The notes beneath the pieces were generated by a model. That model made no database searches. It was given only the letters and a program-made list of their open reading frames with translations, and was not told the origin of the DNA. Below, in pieces: positions 36,198 to 42,259 of a stretch of 42,525 bases of DNA. The DNA comes from Eubacteriales bacterium. Its GTDB lineage: Bacteria > Bacillota > Clostridia > Oscillospirales > UBA644. Within the stretch, counting starts at the first letter, position 1. Each line of letters opens with the position of its first letter. The translations under genes were made by a program, and so were the position numbers. Where the stretch lies: NCBI GenBank assembly GCA_045534395.1, contig JAZSJP010000111.1:1-42525 (forward strand), in the 5' to 3' direction.

Positions 36198-37017
36198 TAT
36201 CAGCGCTTTTTGTTGTCCTGTCTGCGGAAGCGAAATGCAAAAAGAAGGGAAGACCTTGCGATGCTCTTCCGGGCATTGCTATGATTACGCCAAAAGCGGA
36301 TACGTCAATCTTTTTATGTCCCAACAGGGAGGACTTCACGGCGACGACCGCCCCATGGTTCGGGCGCGCACGGCGTTTTTGACGGCGGGATATTACCGTC
36401 CGTTGTTGGAGACTGTTGCAGCTGCGGTGCTTCCCTATCTTCCCAAAGACCCCAAAATCTTCGATGCCGGGTGCGGGGAAGGGTGGTACACGGAAGCATT
36501 GCACACCCATTTGGAGCAAAATGAATTTTGTCCTCAAAGCGTAGGCGTGGATATTTCCAGAGATGCCTTAACCGCCGCCGCCAAGCGGAATTTTGGCGGA
36601 GAATTTGCCGTGGCAAGTTTGTATCACGTTCCTCTGAAAGACCAATGGGCAGATTTGATTATGAACGTTTTTGCTCCCGATTGTATCGAAGAATTTTCAA
36701 GAATTTTGAAACCCGGCGGAATTTACGTAAAGGCGATTCCTCTGGAAGACCATTTGTTGGAATTAAAGCAAGCCGTGTACGATTCCGTTTACGAAAACGA
36801 GGTAAAGATTTTTAAGCACGACGGATTCACGCTTCTTTCTCAAAAGGAACTTCGGTATACCTTGCATCTTCCTGATGGGGAAACCGTAAAAAATCTCTTT
36901 TCCATGACTCCTTACGCCCGAAAAACCTCTCCCAAGGACATGGAAAAATTGAACCGGCTGGACACTTTGGATACCACCGCGGCATTTTCCGTCTTGCTCT
37001 ATCAAAAGGTATTGTAA
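36187..37017 (+). CDS. rlmA: 23S rRNA (guanine-N1)-methyltransferase RlmA-like
   Basis: N-terminal zinc ribbon FCCPVCGSEM...LRCSSGHCYDYAKSGYVNL, followed by a SAM-methyltransferase fold (FDAGCGEGWY). Confidence 0.78.
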   Translation: MKDNISAFCCPVCGSEMQKEGKTLRCSSGHCYDYAKSGYVNLFMSQQGGLHGDDRPMVRARTAFLTAGYYRPLLETVAAAVLPYLPKDPKIFDAGCGEGWYTEALHTHLEQNEFCPQSVGVDISRDALTAAAKRNFGGEFAVASLYHVPLKDQWADLIMNVFAPDCIEEFSRILKPGGIYVKAIPLEDHLLELKQAVYDSVYENEVKIFKHDGFTLLSQKELRYTLHLPDGETVKNLFSMTPYARKTSPKDMEKLNRLDTLDTTAAFSVLLYQKVL

Positions 37018-38378
37018 TGGAACGAAATTTGAACATGACACGGGGAAATCCCCTGAAATTGCTGATTCTGTTTGCCCTGCCCCTGATGTTCGGCAACGCT
37101 TTTCAGCAGTTGTATACCGTCGTCGACGTGGCTATTGTGGGGCGCGGCGTCGGAATGGACGCTCTTGCGGCTTTGGGCACGGTGGATTGGCTTAATTGGA
37201 TGTTTTTGGGCATTGCCCAAGGATACACCCAAGGATTTTCCGTTCGGGTCGCTCAAAAATTCGGGGAACAAGATTTTGGAGAACTGAAACGCGCCGTGGC
37301 GCAATCGGCTTGGCTCTCGTTGTTGATTTCCGTGGTGGGCACCGTGATTGCTCAGTTGGGATTACCTTTGTTTTTGTTTCTTCTTCGGGTTCCTTCCGAA
37401 TTAGTAGGCATGGCAACCTTGTATTCCCGTATTTTAATGGCAGGCTTTGTCGCCGTTATGTTTTTTAACTATTGTTCTTCGATTTTGCGAGGCGTCGGAG
37501 ACAGCAAAACGCCTTTGATTGCCATGGTAATTGCCGCTTTAACCAACATTTTGTTGGACGTGATTACCGTATTTTTCTTAGGTTGGGGGATTGCCGGTGC
37601 CGCCTTTGCAACGGTTTTTTCTCAATGCCTTTCGGGGATCATCTGCCTTATCAAATTGTGTAAAACTCCTGAGTTGCGCTTTTCCAAATCGGATTTCAAG
37701 CAATCCTTTTCTTTGGGCAAGCCTTTGATGAATTTGGGGACTCCCATCGCCGCAAAAAACGTCATTATCGCTTTGGGCGGAATGGGGGTTCAAACGGTGG
37801 TCAACGGATTCTCCCTGAGCTTTATCGCCGGATATACCGCAACCAACAAAATGTACGGCGTTTTGGAAATTGCCGCCCTTTCTTACGGTTATGCCGTTAC
37901 CACCTACGTGGGGCAAAATTACGGTGCCGCTTTGTACGACCGGATTCGAAAAGGCGTCCGTGCCGCAATTCTCTTGTCCCTGATCACCTCAACGGTTATT
38001 TCGGTTCTTATGTTCCTGTTCGGGCGTCAAATTACCGGTTTGTTCCTTGCCTCGGAAGACCCCGTTTTGGCGCAGGCGGCAGGAGATATTGCCTATCTTT
38101 ACCTTTGCTTTATGGCGGCGTGCTTGCCGATTTTGTATCTGTTGTATGCGTATCAATCTGCATTGCAAGGCATGGGAAAGACGGTTCCGTCTATGGTCTC
38201 GGGAATTTTGGAATTCGTGCTTCGGGTCGGAATCTCCGTGGTAGTGGGATTTACCGGTTACGAAATCGGAGTTTTCGGTGCCGAGGTCGCTGCGTGGATT
38301 GTTGCCGCCGGATTTTTGGCAACTTGTTATTACGGACAGTTAAGAAAACAAAAAACGTCGGAATCTCTCCCGACGTAA
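37017..38378 (+). CDS. MATE-family efflux transporter
   Basis: 453 aa, 12 TM helices. N terminus GNPLKLLILFALPLMFGNAFQQLYTVVD is typical of MATE transporters. Confidence 0.9.
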   Translation: MERNLNMTRGNPLKLLILFALPLMFGNAFQQLYTVVDVAIVGRGVGMDALAALGTVDWLNWMFLGIAQGYTQGFSVRVAQKFGEQDFGELKRAVAQSAWLSLLISVVGTVIAQLGLPLFLFLLRVPSELVGMATLYSRILMAGFVAVMFFNYCSSILRGVGDSKTPLIAMVIAALTNILLDVITVFFLGWGIAGAAFATVFSQCLSGIICLIKLCKTPELRFSKSDFKQSFSLGKPLMNLGTPIAAKNVIIALGGMGVQTVVNGFSLSFIAGYTATNKMYGVLEIAALSYGYAVTTYVGQNYGAALYDRIRKGVRAAILLSLITSTVISVLMFLFGRQITGLFLASEDPVLAQAAGDIAYLYLCFMAACLPILYLLYAYQSALQGMGKTVPSMVSGILEFVLRVGISVVVGFTGYEIGVFGAEVAAWIVAAGFLATCYYGQLRKQKTSESLPT

Positions 38379-38382
38379 TACG

Positions 38383-38410
38383 AAAAAAGCCTCCGCAGGG
38401 AGGCTTTTCT
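38383..38410. terminator. Bidirectional terminator
   Basis: aaaaaa-gcctcc-gcag-ggaggc-tttt. Confidence 0.8.
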
Positions 38411-38649
38411 CAAAAGATAATTCTTATGTTTAAAAAGTTGACCATTACGATAATGAGAATCAAGAATCCCCACGCGACGCTTTGGCAGATTGTCGCCGCA
38501 ATGAAGGAGGCTAATTTTTTGCCCCAATTATCACGCCGCTTTGCCGCCGCAATGATGAATTGAATCAAACTGATGATAAACCAAACGTTCAGTCCCACAA
38601 AGATCGACAAAATCATCAGCAAAAACAATAAAAGAAGAATGGATCTCAT
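38410..38649 (-). CDS. Small hydrophobic membrane protein
   Basis: 79 aa. The ATG follows ggggtgattgt. Two to three hydrophobic helices. No family recognised. Confidence 0.45.
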   Translation of the reverse strand: MRSILLLLFLLMILSIFVGLNVWFIISLIQFIIAAAKRRDNWGKKLASFIAATICQSVAWGFLILIIVMVNFLNIRIIF

Positions 38650-38712
38650 ACAATCACCCCACCGTTTTCTTTCATTCTACCACATTCCGCCCCAAATGTC
38701 AAGATTATTTCA

Positions 38713-39025: not shown

Positions 39026-39101
39026 CGGGGTGTGGCGCAGTTGATAGCGCGGGTGGTTTGGGACCATCAGGCCGCGGGTTTGAGCCCCGCCACTCCGACC
39101 A
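39026..39101 (+). tRNA. trnP: tRNA-Pro (anticodon UGG), 76 nt with encoded CCA and an atypical elbow
   Basis: CGGGGTG-TG-GCGC-AGTTGATA-GCGC-G-GGTGG-TTTGGGA-CCATC-AGGCC-GCGGG-TTTGAGC-CCCGC-CACTCCG-A-CCA. All four stems pair and G37 is present. The D loop has GA instead of GG, and the T loop has UUU instead of UUC. Confidence 0.86.
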
Positions 39102-39137
39102 AAAGCCTCTGGAATCAAATGATTCCAGAGGCTTTTT
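39102..39137. terminator. Bidirectional terminator between tRNA-Pro and the FRG gene
   Basis: aaagcctctggaatc-aaat-gattccagaggcttt, a 15-bp stem flanked by an A-run and a T-run. Confidence 0.85.
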
Positions 39138-40273
39138 CATTCAAAATCTGTGATCATATTTTCAGGTAGAATTTTAGGATTATCCGACTCTAACCGGGAA
39201 CTTTCTTGTCTCATCAGTAAAATCCTATAACCTTGATCAATCTTTTCATTCGGGAAAAAGTTTTCTTGACTTAATAAGACTCCGTTTCCCAACATTTCTT
39301 TGACTAATGATACACTTATTTGCAAAACGCATGCAATTTTCGAATTAAAATCGTATGAGCATTCTTTCCCTCTTACGATCCAACCATGTTGAGAACATGG
39401 ACGCAAAAAGGTCGAAGGCAATGCCTTTCTAAGATCTATCGTATATGTATTTTCTCCCAAATACACACCATGAATATTAGACGTGTTCGTTTCCGCAACA
39501 TATAAAAACATGTATAAATGCTCCGCATTTATTATTTCGTCAATCTCTTGATTATATTGTTTAATTTTTTTGCATTCAGCTTCCCAACTTCTACATTGTG
39601 CTTCATATTTAGTACGGGTATTCCGTTTAATCAATTCGTCTAGAGTTATACTCCCATGTGAAGCACATTCTTTTAATATTTGAATTTTCTCCTCACTTAA
39701 AACAACACTTTCTAAACAAGGCTTTAGGGGAAACTCTTGTTTTGCAATCCTATCACTTTTTGTTATATAAGGACTAAGTTTTGCTTTTCCTTTATGTTCT
39801 CTGCATTTATATTTTTTCTTTTTTGCATCCCATTCATATAATCCAAACCATAATGCCGTCCAATGATTATCCACAAAATCAACACAGTATGTTTTCGCTC
39901 CATAATGTTGAAAAACCGCTTCTACTATTAGTTTTTCATATAGCTTCCACCCATCAATATCACTATTTCTTAACCCCAAGAATTTTCTAAATGGATCATC
40001 TTCAATGGATGCACTAATCGCATCTTTCAATCGTCCTTCGTGATATTCAATTTCAGACATACAATGCTTAATGCTTGGAATAACGGATTCATACAGCTCA
40101 CATTGTCCCCTATACAACACTGTTCCATTTCCTGCATTAATATGCTTTATATAACCGACAACCTGATTTAATGCGTGCATGCTTGGAATTTCATAAACAG
40201 GAATATCGGTTTCTCCCCATGTCCCTATCATTGGAGATTGTTGAAGATCTGTAGCTTTTGGATACGCAACCAT
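39137..40273 (-). CDS. FRG-domain protein with a ~120-aa internal insertion
   Basis: 378 aa. The ATG follows aaaggagaagtaaa. Motifs are LYRGQ...IPSI, then FQHYGAKTYCVDFVDNHWTALWFGL, then late FLRPCSQHGWIV. These match my recollection of the Pfam FRG pattern (F/Y)RGQ...QHYG.pT..lD.t.....AL.FA...R...Q.G.f. The sequence is AT-rich. Confidence 0.7.
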   Translation of the reverse strand: MVAYPKATDLQQSPMIGTWGETDIPVYEIPSMHALNQVVGYIKHINAGNGTVLYRGQCELYESVIPSIKHCMSEIEYHEGRLKDAISASIEDDPFRKFLGLRNSDIDGWKLYEKLIVEAVFQHYGAKTYCVDFVDNHWTALWFGLYEWDAKKKKYKCREHKGKAKLSPYITKSDRIAKQEFPLKPCLESVVLSEEKIQILKECASHGSITLDELIKRNTRTKYEAQCRSWEAECKKIKQYNQEIDEIINAEHLYMFLYVAETNTSNIHGVYLGENTYTIDLRKALPSTFLRPCSQHGWIVRGKECSYDFNSKIACVLQISVSLVKEMLGNGVLLSQENFFPNEKIDQGYRILLMRQESSRLESDNPKILPENMITDFE

Positions 40274-40346
40274 TTTACTTCTCCTTTTATTTTAATTTGC
40301 CTTTCTTTGTTTACTGCGAGTCAAATTTGTTATCGGTTTTAACGCA

Positions 40347-41114
40347 TCAGTCTTTCTCCCATCTATTTGCATCTGTCCATCGAAATCTCGGAGTTGTCTC
40401 CTTTCTGTCGCACCCCGAATAACAACCGTCTCTTCCCCAAATATTACACACTTCGTGAGTTTTTCCATCAATAGGATATACTGCATGATGAATACATCCT
40501 TGACAGTATTCTGTTTCTATTATTCCGTCTACATTATTGTGAAATGTATCCACAACTGCTTCTCCTTCCTTATTGTCGTCTGCATCAGAGAGAGGCGTAT
40601 AGTCTGTGATTTCATCACTGTCATTTGCTTGAGCCGCCAGATATGCAACGCCAGCTACAGCAGCCACCGCTCCTACAACCTTGCCTGCTGTTATGAGCCA
40701 TTGCTTTGCTTTTTCAAGACGAGCTTGTCTGCAATCCGCACAAAGAGTCGCATCTGGGTTAGGTAGCACCTTTCCACAGTCTGAGCAAACACCTTTTATA
40801 TTGTTGAACGTGGTATCGTTCTCATATCCACAATTACGACAAATGTGTTTTACTGATTTTTTATTAAAACCTTCTTGGTTGTTGAGGTAAGCTTCACACT
40901 CATCGCAAAACCAAAAGACACAGTCGTTCAGAAAATACTGTTCAGAAAAATGATAACCACAATCCTCGCAAGTCCACAACGACTTCTTTTTATTGAAGGT
41001 CATTTTACCGTTTTTACAGGCAGGGCAGAACATCCACTTCTTAATTTTTCGGATATACGCATAGGTGAGAGTCTCAACTATATTCTTATGTGTTTTGGTT
41101 TTCACTTTCTTCAT
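40347..41114 (-). CDS. Membrane protein with three N-terminal zinc ribbons, one TM helix and a Cys/His-rich C-terminal domain
   Basis: The ATG at 41114 lies 8 nt after gaaggagg. CxxC pairs are CPAC...CEDC, CDEC...CRNC and CSDC...CADC. The TM helix is ITAGKVVGAVAAVAGVAYLAAQA. An acidic linker leads to CQGCIHH...C...C...C. Confidence 0.8.
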   Translation of the reverse strand: MKKVKTKTHKNIVETLTYAYIRKIKKWMFCPACKNGKMTFNKKKSLWTCEDCGYHFSEQYFLNDCVFWFCDECEAYLNNQEGFNKKSVKHICRNCGYENDTTFNNIKGVCSDCGKVLPNPDATLCADCRQARLEKAKQWLITAGKVVGAVAAVAGVAYLAAQANDSDEITDYTPLSDADDNKEGEAVVDTFHNNVDGIIETEYCQGCIHHAVYPIDGKTHEVCNIWGRDGCYSGCDRKETTPRFRWTDANRWEKD

Positions 41115-41478
41115 CGACTGCGCCTCCTTCATTGCTACTGTCAGTTAACTCTTCGCTAAAAGCAGTATATATTTTTTCGCCCATCTCATCGTGGGCTTTT
41201 TTCTCAGAGATTTTCTTTTTGACAAATTTTACCCCTTTCGGGACAAGGCACAAAACGCCACATACGCCAAGAGTGATGACACTACCTTTTGCTAAACCAA
41301 TTTTTTTACCCTTAGCAAGACCCGTCTTTTCACCTTCGGTCAACGCGTAGTTAAAAATGTTTTTTACGCCTTCTAACATATTTCCATCTCCGATGGATTT
41401 AAGAGGCTTTGTTACATCAGGTGCTGCTGCGGATGCTGTTTTCAGCAGTTCTCCAATTTGATTTCCCTTGTTACTCAT
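41086..41478 (-). CDS. Small single-pass membrane protein with an acidic C-terminal tail
   Basis: 130 aa. The ATG follows ggaggacaaaga and overlaps the upstream stop (ATGA). The TM helix is SVITLGVCGVLCLVP. No family recognised. Confidence 0.7.
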   Translation of the reverse strand: MSNKGNQIGELLKTASAAAPDVTKPLKSIGDGNMLEGVKNIFNYALTEGEKTGLAKGKKIGLAKGSVITLGVCGVLCLVPKGVKFVKKKISEKKAHDEMGEKIYTAFSEELTDSSNEGGAVDEESENQNT

Positions 41479-41924
41479 TCTTTGTCCTCCATTTCAACAG
41501 ACAGACTATCAATCAGTCTTTGGAACTCGGTGATTTGTAACTGGTCGGCTTCAATCTGCTTTTGAAGCTGGCGAATGGTATCTTCCTTAGCTTTGATGAA
41601 TTCATTGTGCTTTTTGATTTCACTGCGAAGGAACTTGATGATATCAGTATCGGAAATGCGTGCTTTCTTCAACTGTTCAACATCGATAATTTTTTGAGCT
41701 ATCAAACCTCCGATCATCGCTGTTGAAATTAGTGCCGTACTCGCTATCGATGCATATTTTGGAGACGATTTCAAAAAAGTATGGAGAGCAGACTCATATA
41801 CTATATGACCTCCTTTTTTTGACTCAATTGTAGCTTCCAGTTTCTTATCACGGATCCATCTACGAACTGTTTCCGGATTCGTGTTAAGCAGATCTGCAAT
41901 TTCTTTTACACTGTACGTTTTCAA
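41475..41924 (-). CDS. Excisionase/MerR-type HTH protein fused to a hydrophobic segment and a coiled coil
   Basis: 149 aa with a TTG start after ggcggtgaag. YSVKEIADLLNTNPETVRRWIRDKKLEA...GGHIVYESALHTFL resembles the HTH_17 pattern. Then come the segment IASTALISTAMIGGLIA and a heptad-rich tail. Confidence 0.75.
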   Translation of the reverse strand: MKTYSVKEIADLLNTNPETVRRWIRDKKLEATIESKKGGHIVYESALHTFLKSSPKYASIASTALISTAMIGGLIAQKIIDVEQLKKARISDTDIIKFLRSEIKKHNEFIKAKEDTIRQLQKQIEADQLQITEFQRLIDSLSVEMEDKE

Positions 41925-41947: not shown

Positions 41948-41976
41948 ATTATACCACACTTCCGCTCAATTGTCAA
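41948..41976 (-). promoter_or_regulatory. Near-consensus sigma-70 promoter with an extended -10, driving the four-gene cassette
   Basis: On the minus strand: TTGACA, 17 nt ending in TGG, TATAAT. It lies about 25 nt upstream of the TTG start at 41924. Confidence 0.65.
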
Positions 41977-42010: not shown

Positions 42011-42041
42011 AAAGAGGGCGCCTTAATCGGCGCCCTCTTTT
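42011..42041. terminator. Bidirectional terminator at the right edge of the AT-rich cassette
   Basis: aaagagggcgcc-ttaatc-ggcgccctctttt. Confidence 0.7.
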
Positions 42042-42259
42042 CGTTTTGCTTTCTCTTCCGCAATCTCCGCTTTGACTCTTTCGATCATCTCGGCGAGTTT
42101 GATTTCGCACTGTTCTTTCGTTTCGGCGTAGACGTTGAACTTCTTTCGCTTGCCGTTCGGCAGTGTTGGGAAGAAGCGGTCATCACAGACGTTGCCATTG
42201 ATCTGATTCCGGCAATCCGTATCTCATCCTTCATCCATACCGGCTTTTCTTATATCCAT
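42023..42259 (-). pseudogene. Remnant of a site-specific integrase N terminus (arm-type DNA-binding region), interrupted and truncated
   Basis: The minus-strand frame reads MDIRKAGMDEG*DTDCRNQINGNVCDDRFFPTLPNGKRKKFNVYAETKEQCEIKLAEMIERVKAEIAEEKAKRKEGAD*. The PNGKRKKFNVYAETKEQCEIKLAEMI stretch resembles the N-terminal arm-binding segment of tyrosine integrases. It carries an in-frame TGA and no catalytic domain follows. Confidence 0.4.

Follow-up and report, generated by a model that had tools for sequence, protein, structure and literature searches.

Proteins of the FRG family (Pfam PF08867) have been assigned to the ADP-ribosyltransferase (ART) superfamily and proposed as possible NADase effectors in prokaryotic immunity (PMC9503650, from Aravind's group, citing Burroughs and Aravind 2020), and the ART assignment is repeated in PMC12522546. 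Stand-alone FRG proteins are catalogued by PADLOC as PDC-S15, which has the status of a candidate defence system only; a literature search returned no experimental report on any FRG protein, and the link of PDC-S15 to phages in the literature is an association drawn by machine learning, in a preprint on P. aeruginosa. The Pfam FRG model is matched in 28 of 401 sampled Bacillota genomes (approximately 7%), from which 28 canonical FRG proteins were extracted for comparison. These share a signature that runs in the order [FY]RG, QH[YH]G-x-PTRLLDWT..P..ALFFA, a variable middle region, P....R-x3-Q-x-G-x-F and finally 'IIP...K..I...L...GI...LYP'. The DNA analysed here, a 42,525-nucleotide Oscillospirales contig referred to as the window, encodes a lineage-specific variant of this known family rather than a new kind of system, with a folded insertion predicted in its middle region (Table 1).

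The FRG gene is a minus-strand ORF without internal stops that encodes 378 amino acids and is preceded by an AAGGAG ribosome-binding site 7 nt 5' of its ATG. The first-pass annotation of this sequence had named it an FRG-domain protein on the basis of the motifs YRGQ, QHYG, D, ALWFG and FLRPCSQHGW, all of which lie in the ORF where they were reported: Y54-R55-G56-Q57, Q122-H-Y-G125, D132 and D135, A140-L-W-F-G144 and F289-L-R-P-C-S-Q-H-G-W298. Family membership is borne out by alignment to the Pfam FRG model (94 positions, curated gathering cut-off of 25 bits), which matches residues 52 to 148 over profile positions 3 to 89 with 31.6 bits (E 3.2e-7); the match was reproduced in the genome search (33.4 bits, window 39830-40120). 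Nine PADLOC PDC-S15 models also match the protein, the best of them (E 2.5e-8) over residues 34 to 150 and HMM positions 44 to 152 of 276, which is the N-terminal half and not the full length. By comparison, the canonical FRG protein L039 is matched over positions 45 to 271 of 276 (E 1.6e-47), and canonical Bacillota FRG proteins score 47 to 96 bits with the Pfam model against 33 for the window protein. NCBIfam holds no model that matches the protein, and PHROGs gave a weak match only, to a family of unknown function.

Table 1. Features of the FRG locus and its surroundings in the window
Feature	Position	Strand	Basis
tRNA-Pro(UGG), integration site bounding the islet	39026..39101	+	ARAGORN; same tRNA flanks other cargo in G409 and G411
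Hairpin (inverted repeat) separating tRNA-Pro from the FRG stop codon	39102..39135	.	Read from sequence
FRG-family gene, 378 aa	39137..40273	-	ORF; Pfam FRG E 3.2e-7; PDC-S15 E 2.5e-8; 277 homologues
C-terminal core block, residues 252-360	39194..39520	-	Invariant columns in alignments A1/A2
Lineage-specific insertion, residues 160-251, 92 aa	39521..39796	-	Missing in P0083, L038 and FRG-YunG fusions
N-terminal core block, residues 1-159	39797..40273	-	Alignments A1/A2; hhalign against canonical FRG
Protein of 261 aa, several zinc ribbons plus a membrane segment, upstream neighbour of FRG	40347..41132	-	Weak zinc-ribbon Pfam hits
130-aa orphan gene	41086..41478	-	Conserved in L015
149-aa HTH_17/excisionase-like gene	41475..41924	-	Pfam HTH_17 6e-11; TIGR01764 excisionase domain; conserved in L015
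Perfect sigma-70 consensus promoter (TTGACA, 17 nt, TG, TATAAT)	41948..41976	-	Consensus match only
Tyrosine-integrase 3' remnant, distal edge of decayed element	42014..42221	-	81-85% DNA identity

At the level of motifs, the protein follows the canonical signature throughout and in the same order. Its N-terminal block reads Y54-R55-G56 followed by Q122-HYG-AKT-YCVDFVDNHWTALWFG, a variant of the QH[YH]G-x-PT-x-L-D-x-T...ALFFA element, and its C-terminal part carries R291-PCS-Q295-H-G297-W298 and a 'CVLQISVSLVKEMLGNGVLLSQENFFP' tail, corresponding to R-x3-Q-x-G-x-[FW] and 'I.I....L..G....FP', respectively. The R-x3-Q-x-G-x-[FW] element falls outside the Pfam FRG model; a form of it, R-x3-Q-x-[GSA]-x-[FW], is present in all 28 canonical proteins sampled. 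Because the element is kept in the same order in canonical proteins, the earlier reading of FLRPCSQHGW as the C-terminal FRG element holds at the motif level. Profile comparison by hhalign of the subfamily N-terminal block with 23 to 28 canonical FRG proteins gave a probability of 96% (E about 1e-8), and comparison of the C-terminal motif alone was marginal (P = 0.048). The same annotation described the FRG domain as split, which is correct for the larger FRG core, interrupted between its motifs, and incorrect for the Pfam-defined domain, since the HMM match is one continuous stretch. Judged on sequence, the gene product belongs to the stand-alone FRG proteins listed under PDC-S15, as a divergent member.

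A total of 277 homologues were collected, most of which are 375 to 390 aa long and share 40 to 62% identity with the window protein over their full length. Two alignments of these proteins (A1 and A2) show a poorly conserved middle flanked by a conserved N-terminal and a highly conserved C-terminal block; the enzyme-like core consists of two conserved halves, residues 1 to 159 and 252 to 360. The N-terminal block holds YRGQ (54-57), QHYG (122-125) and D132/D135/N136/W138, and the C-terminal block holds D280-L-R282, R291-P-x-x-Q295-H-G-W298 (window 39380-39403) and G329/G331/F339-P341; a Pfam scan of the C-terminal block alone gave no match. Residues 252 to 288, between the insertion and the FLRP motif, are conserved core strands and lie outside the insertion. 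Invariant residues of these alignments include R55, G56, Q122-H-Y, T128, D132, D135, N136 and W138 in the N-terminal half, and D280-L-R282, R291, Q295, G297, W298, G329, G331, F339, P341, D346 and G348 in the C-terminal half. A candidate set of active-site residues can be drawn from this list, comprising R55-G56, Q122-H-Y, T128, D132, D135-N136, W138, D280, R282, R291, Q295 and G297-W298.

The boundaries of the insertion, residues 160 to 251, are fixed by natural relatives that lack it. The clearest case is P0083, a complete 287-aa gene on its contig, which aligns with the window protein over residues 1 to 159 (52% identity) and 252 to 368 (62% identity), with 10 residues in place of 92; L038 and the FRG-YunG (PF24585) fusion proteins share this junction. 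Across these insert-less members the core blocks are 42 to 62% identical to those of the window protein, the invariant residues and the predicted secondary structure of the core are shared, and a loop of approximately 10 residues stands where the window protein carries 92. The insert had previously been estimated at about 120 residues; the quoted segment DAKKKK...NAEH in fact spans residues 149 to 252 (104 aa), of which the true insertion is 92. It is charged, as described (35% charged residues: 13 K, 4 R, 3 D and 12 E). Unlike the window protein, many insert-less members carry a C-terminal YunG domain, which is the usual state of such proteins (P0100, P0103, P0113, P0117 and similar; L032 to L035); some of the YunG type also have an N-terminal DUF1016_N domain, and a long insert and YunG together occur in none of the proteins seen.

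The length of this region varies widely. Within the subfamily, the spacing from QHYG to RPxxQHGW takes values of 78-81, 87, 100, 129, 138, 154-178 (169 in the window protein), 187, 197 and 203-204, identifying the hairpin-loop site as an indel hot-spot, at which between zero and about 124 residues are added. The equivalent spacing in canonical FRG proteins is 67 to 198 with a median of 100, which places the window protein in the upper tail of the family-wide range. The earlier proposal of a non-standard insertion is thus right in that close relatives and most canonical FRG proteins lack the segment, although a long middle region is unusual and not unique. In a tree built from the core only, insert-less forms fall in two places, one being the YunG clade with L038 and L033 and the other P0083; two separate placements imply at least two gain or loss events, a count that holds whatever root is given to this unrooted tree. 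Such a pattern could be read as neutral or structural decoration of a tolerant surface loop, in a protein that works like compact FRG proteins: inter-motif length varies from 67 to 198 residues across the family, insert-less forms in at least two places in the core tree imply that the core works without the insert, and the insert has no recognisable domain or relatives elsewhere. This reading is possible, though we consider it rather doubtful in light of the predicted fold, conservation and selection on the segment.

AlphaFold2 modelled the window protein from an 84-sequence alignment with a pLDDT of 93.2 and a pTM of 0.87. In this model the insert sits between the strands 154-157 and 252-260 and comprises a strand (170-172), a helix (194-206) and a 39-residue helix (211-249), consistent with the helical character first proposed for it, and its pLDDT over 10-residue blocks is 80 to 96. 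The model of insert-less P0083 (pLDDT 93.2, pTM 0.91) has the same core, with the equivalent hairpin loop as its lowest-confidence block. According to these models, a surface beta-hairpin loop is expanded into a 92-residue, mostly helical, folded module. A defined fold of this confidence argues against mere decoration, as does the retention of a version of approximately 90 residues in more than 60 diverged sequences. Among 66 sequences of this insert class, mean identity to the window protein is 56% in the N-terminal block, 25% in the insert and 66% in the C-terminal block, and W230 and P185 of the insert are conserved in at least 90%. The insert does contain the several cysteines pointed out in the first-pass annotation (186, 203, 227 and 234), however they are not a conserved feature: C234 is moderately conserved (47/66), the other three are not, and a CxxC pattern is absent. 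A metal-binding or redox role of these cysteines was rejected on the same grounds, and a weak zinc-ribbon Pfam match in the insert (E 0.04-0.05) was dismissed because the cysteines are unconserved.

Selection on the insert was estimated from L001 and L015, the one pair at usable divergence (83% amino-acid identity), in which dN/dS is 0.08 in the N-terminal block, 0.15 in the insert and 0.04 in the C-terminal block; the dN of the insert is 2 to 3.5 times that of the core in all pairs. The insert is thus kept by purifying selection (dN/dS about 0.15), while being less constrained and faster-evolving than the core. Maintenance of its sequence at this level, together with the conservation of W230, P185 and in part C234, speaks against a purely decorative loop. 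Diversifying selection in the insert left no direct signal, its average dN/dS being well below 1, and the near-identical allele P0001 differs by five substitutions, one of them in the insert, too few to inform. Repeat-templated or diversity-generating variation of the insert was rejected, with only trivial repeats of 12 to 16 nt found. A Pfam scan of the insert alone gave no match, and an insert-only search of 1.84 billion representative proteins found no relatives outside the subfamily; two non-family matches (P0122 and P0123) are spurious translations of tandem repeats, matched nine and six times over. A folded, constrained and fast-evolving insert fits a functional surface module, without pointing to which function. 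A sensor or regulatory role had been suggested for it in the first-pass annotation; the insert may be a surface that sets specificity or regulates the protein, for instance by recognising a trigger, by autoinhibition or through oligomerisation.

With respect to enzymatic chemistry, the literature hypothesis is that the core is an ART-superfamily fold that consumes, or transfers from, NAD+, which the searches made here do not confirm. In the AlphaFold2 secondary structure, R55 lies at a strand end and T128 and Q295 each lie just before a strand, a layout compatible with an R-S/T-E/Q type of active site of the ART superfamily, to which RES-domain NADase toxins, for example, belong. The predicted core differs from a minimal ART fold in having more strands between the second and third motif, and from canonical FRG proteins in having extra beta-strands (252-280). 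The first-pass annotation had looked to structure searches for a catalytic fold; Foldseek with the AlphaFold2 models (window protein against PDB and BFVD, P0083 against PDB) gave nothing better than E 0.2, and the only ART structure among the matches is a meaningless one at E 7.7. The top matches, to LSD1 (E about 0.6), reflect the long helix only. Sequence and profile searches of the PDB, for which the protein itself, alignment A3 and alignment A4 of the canonical proteins served as queries, gave only spurious low-complexity matches. The comparison by hhalign of FRG profiles with RES (8 sequences) and AbiGi (2 sequences) gave probabilities of at most 0.2%, but had no power, since the RES-versus-AbiGi positive control also failed (1.2%). 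A more specific proposal builds on this chemistry: the protein would be an NAD+-dependent, ART-like defence effector that works as a single protein and recognises its trigger or target through the insert. Its loop would act as a built-in cassette site at which modules of 0 to 124 residues are exchanged, so as to retarget or regulate the enzyme, in a role comparable to the specificity loops of ADP-ribosylating enzymes, and the FRG allele would be swapped by recombination inside a mobile-element cassette that is conserved in other respects. Taken as a whole, this proposal is unlikely.

The genomic setting of the FRG gene suggests a mobile origin. Over 39-42 kb of the window the GC content drops from about 50% to 36-40%, and this islet is bounded by a tRNA-Pro gene. 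Between the tRNA and the FRG stop codon lies an inverted-repeat hairpin that is likely a terminator for both directions. At the other edge, a remnant matches the 3' (C-terminal) ends of intact integrase genes located at the same tRNA-Pro site in two genomes of the same genus, G409 and G411; a direct repeat of the tRNA 3' end that would mark the far element boundary was not found. The same site carries different cargo in these genomes. In G409 it holds two integrases, a SoFic-type Fic gene, and HTH and zinc-ribbon genes without FRG, and in G411 a 299-aa orphan and an integrase. The G409 gene is a SoFic-type Fic/DOC defence gene (L088, G409:C52, 3747-4793; PADLOC 2e-37), and the G411 orphan (L089, G411:C66, 1625-2524) has no Pfam or PADLOC match. 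From this context, the islet would be a decayed integrative element whose tRNA-Pro end carries the FRG gene as exchangeable cargo. A putative promoter lies upstream of the HTH gene, and the genes follow on the same strand in the order HTH, 130-aa orphan, zinc-ribbon and FRG, so placed that FRG may be transcribed together with the other three genes of the element from this one consensus promoter.

A MAG contig, L015, carries the same cassette with another FRG allele. Its 130-aa and zinc-ribbon genes share 96 to 100% DNA identity with the window (40337-41536), and its zinc-ribbon protein is 100% identical to that of the window; the FRG genes share only 52 to 84% DNA identity, lowest in the insert, with a sharp break at the gene start, and the FRG proteins are 58% identical. 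Because the L015 allele is instead 83% identical in amino-acid sequence to that of L001, FRG alleles appear to have been exchanged within a conserved cassette. The HTH genes of L015 and the window share about 80 to 85% identity, in a mosaic with sharp recombination breakpoints.

The four genes on one strand, overlapping or close together behind one consensus promoter, raise the question of whether FRG is the effector of a multi-gene system. Its partner would be the zinc-ribbon membrane protein, perhaps joined by the products of the 130-aa and HTH genes, and the insert would be the docking surface. In the window and L015, the gene immediately upstream of FRG encodes a zinc-ribbon homologue, and in L001 to L006, L016 and L018 an upstream homologue is separated from FRG by a single small gene of 80 to 86 aa; the zinc-ribbon neighbours of L001, L016 and L018 are 69 to 75% identical to that of the window. 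This recurrence could mean that the FRG gene does not act alone, and counts against a single-gene reading. However, the association is seen only within a single FRG sub-clade, whose members have the mobile element in common, and HTH and zinc-ribbon genes also occur without FRG, in G409. Among other homologues with the insert, neighbours are unrelated (STAND NTPases, HsdR, helicases) or absent, and the pairing in L015 of an identical zinc-ribbon gene with an FRG allele of 58% identity argues against tight co-adaptation, making a multi-gene system improbable.

Beyond this cassette, most of the homologous loci belong to gut Oscillospirales, among them Faecalibacterium prausnitzii UT1, and a few belong to Olsenella, Bacteroidales and Faecalimonas. 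Neighbours of the FRG homologues include STAND NTPases, type I HsdR, a PLD-helicase-DUF3427 protein, an SNF2 helicase, patatin and subtilase, along with AbiH, HepT/MNT, transposases and recombinases. Upstream and downstream genes differ across at least 30 loci, with no conserved partner, as expected for the single-gene PDC-S15. Such surroundings agree with a gene that is carried singly, as cargo, in defence islands, and a stand-alone gene in variable, mobile and defence-rich surroundings is a further likeness of the window protein to PDC-S15. In one metagenome contig (L007, 2760-8500), the FRG gene and a gene for a 1107-aa STAND-like NTPase form an island that is apparently inserted into a spoVA operon, with pieces of a SpoVAD-like gene on both sides.

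The FRG gene is most likely a single-gene conflict or defence effector, which in this setting would act against phages or mobile elements. The location of the gene in what is left of a mobile element, the excisionase-like HTH gene nearby, and the failure to find experimental defence evidence for any FRG protein, would also suit a toxin, addiction factor or maintenance function of the tRNA-Pro integrative element rather than defence. Homologues in many unrelated defence-island contexts (AbiH, HepT/MNT, R-M, STAND), a SoFic gene at the same site and the lack of a conserved antitoxin-like partner make such a role very unlikely. With a single-gene defence effector preferred, the match to PDC-S15 HMMs by the N-terminal half only must still be counted against it, and the window protein departs from canonical FRG proteins in its low Pfam score and in a 92-aa helical insertion that raises the motif spacing to 169 from a canonical median of 100. 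On balance, we lean modestly towards the combined interpretation of a divergent PDC-S15-type FRG protein with a helical insert in a hairpin loop, acting as a mobile single-gene effector whose core would have the ART fold assigned in the literature.

FRG proteins are catalogued defence candidates in approximately 7% of the sampled Bacillota genomes, with no relative in the PDB found by sequence or fold search. The family itself is known and the window protein does not found a new class of system; what is new here is the architecture of the insertion and the existence of natural pairs with and without it. With such pairs at 50 to 60% identity, a list of invariant residues and confident AlphaFold2 models, the subfamily is well suited to studies of the function of the FRG core and of a possible part of the variable loop in specificity or regulation.

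Two further observations concern variation around these genes. In the MAG contig L031 (5968-7097), an FRG homologue is split into ORFs of 232 and 128 aa, probably by a frameshift or as a pseudogene; a subtilase gene and a 494-aa orphan are found upstream of it. In the window, a MATE-type efflux gene (37017-38378) is followed by a small minus-strand membrane ORF (together window 37008-38693), and both are missing between the methyltransferase gene and tRNA-Pro in L082, L083, L084, L086 and L087 of the same genus, identifying 37008-38693 as a second variable segment that adjoins the islet.
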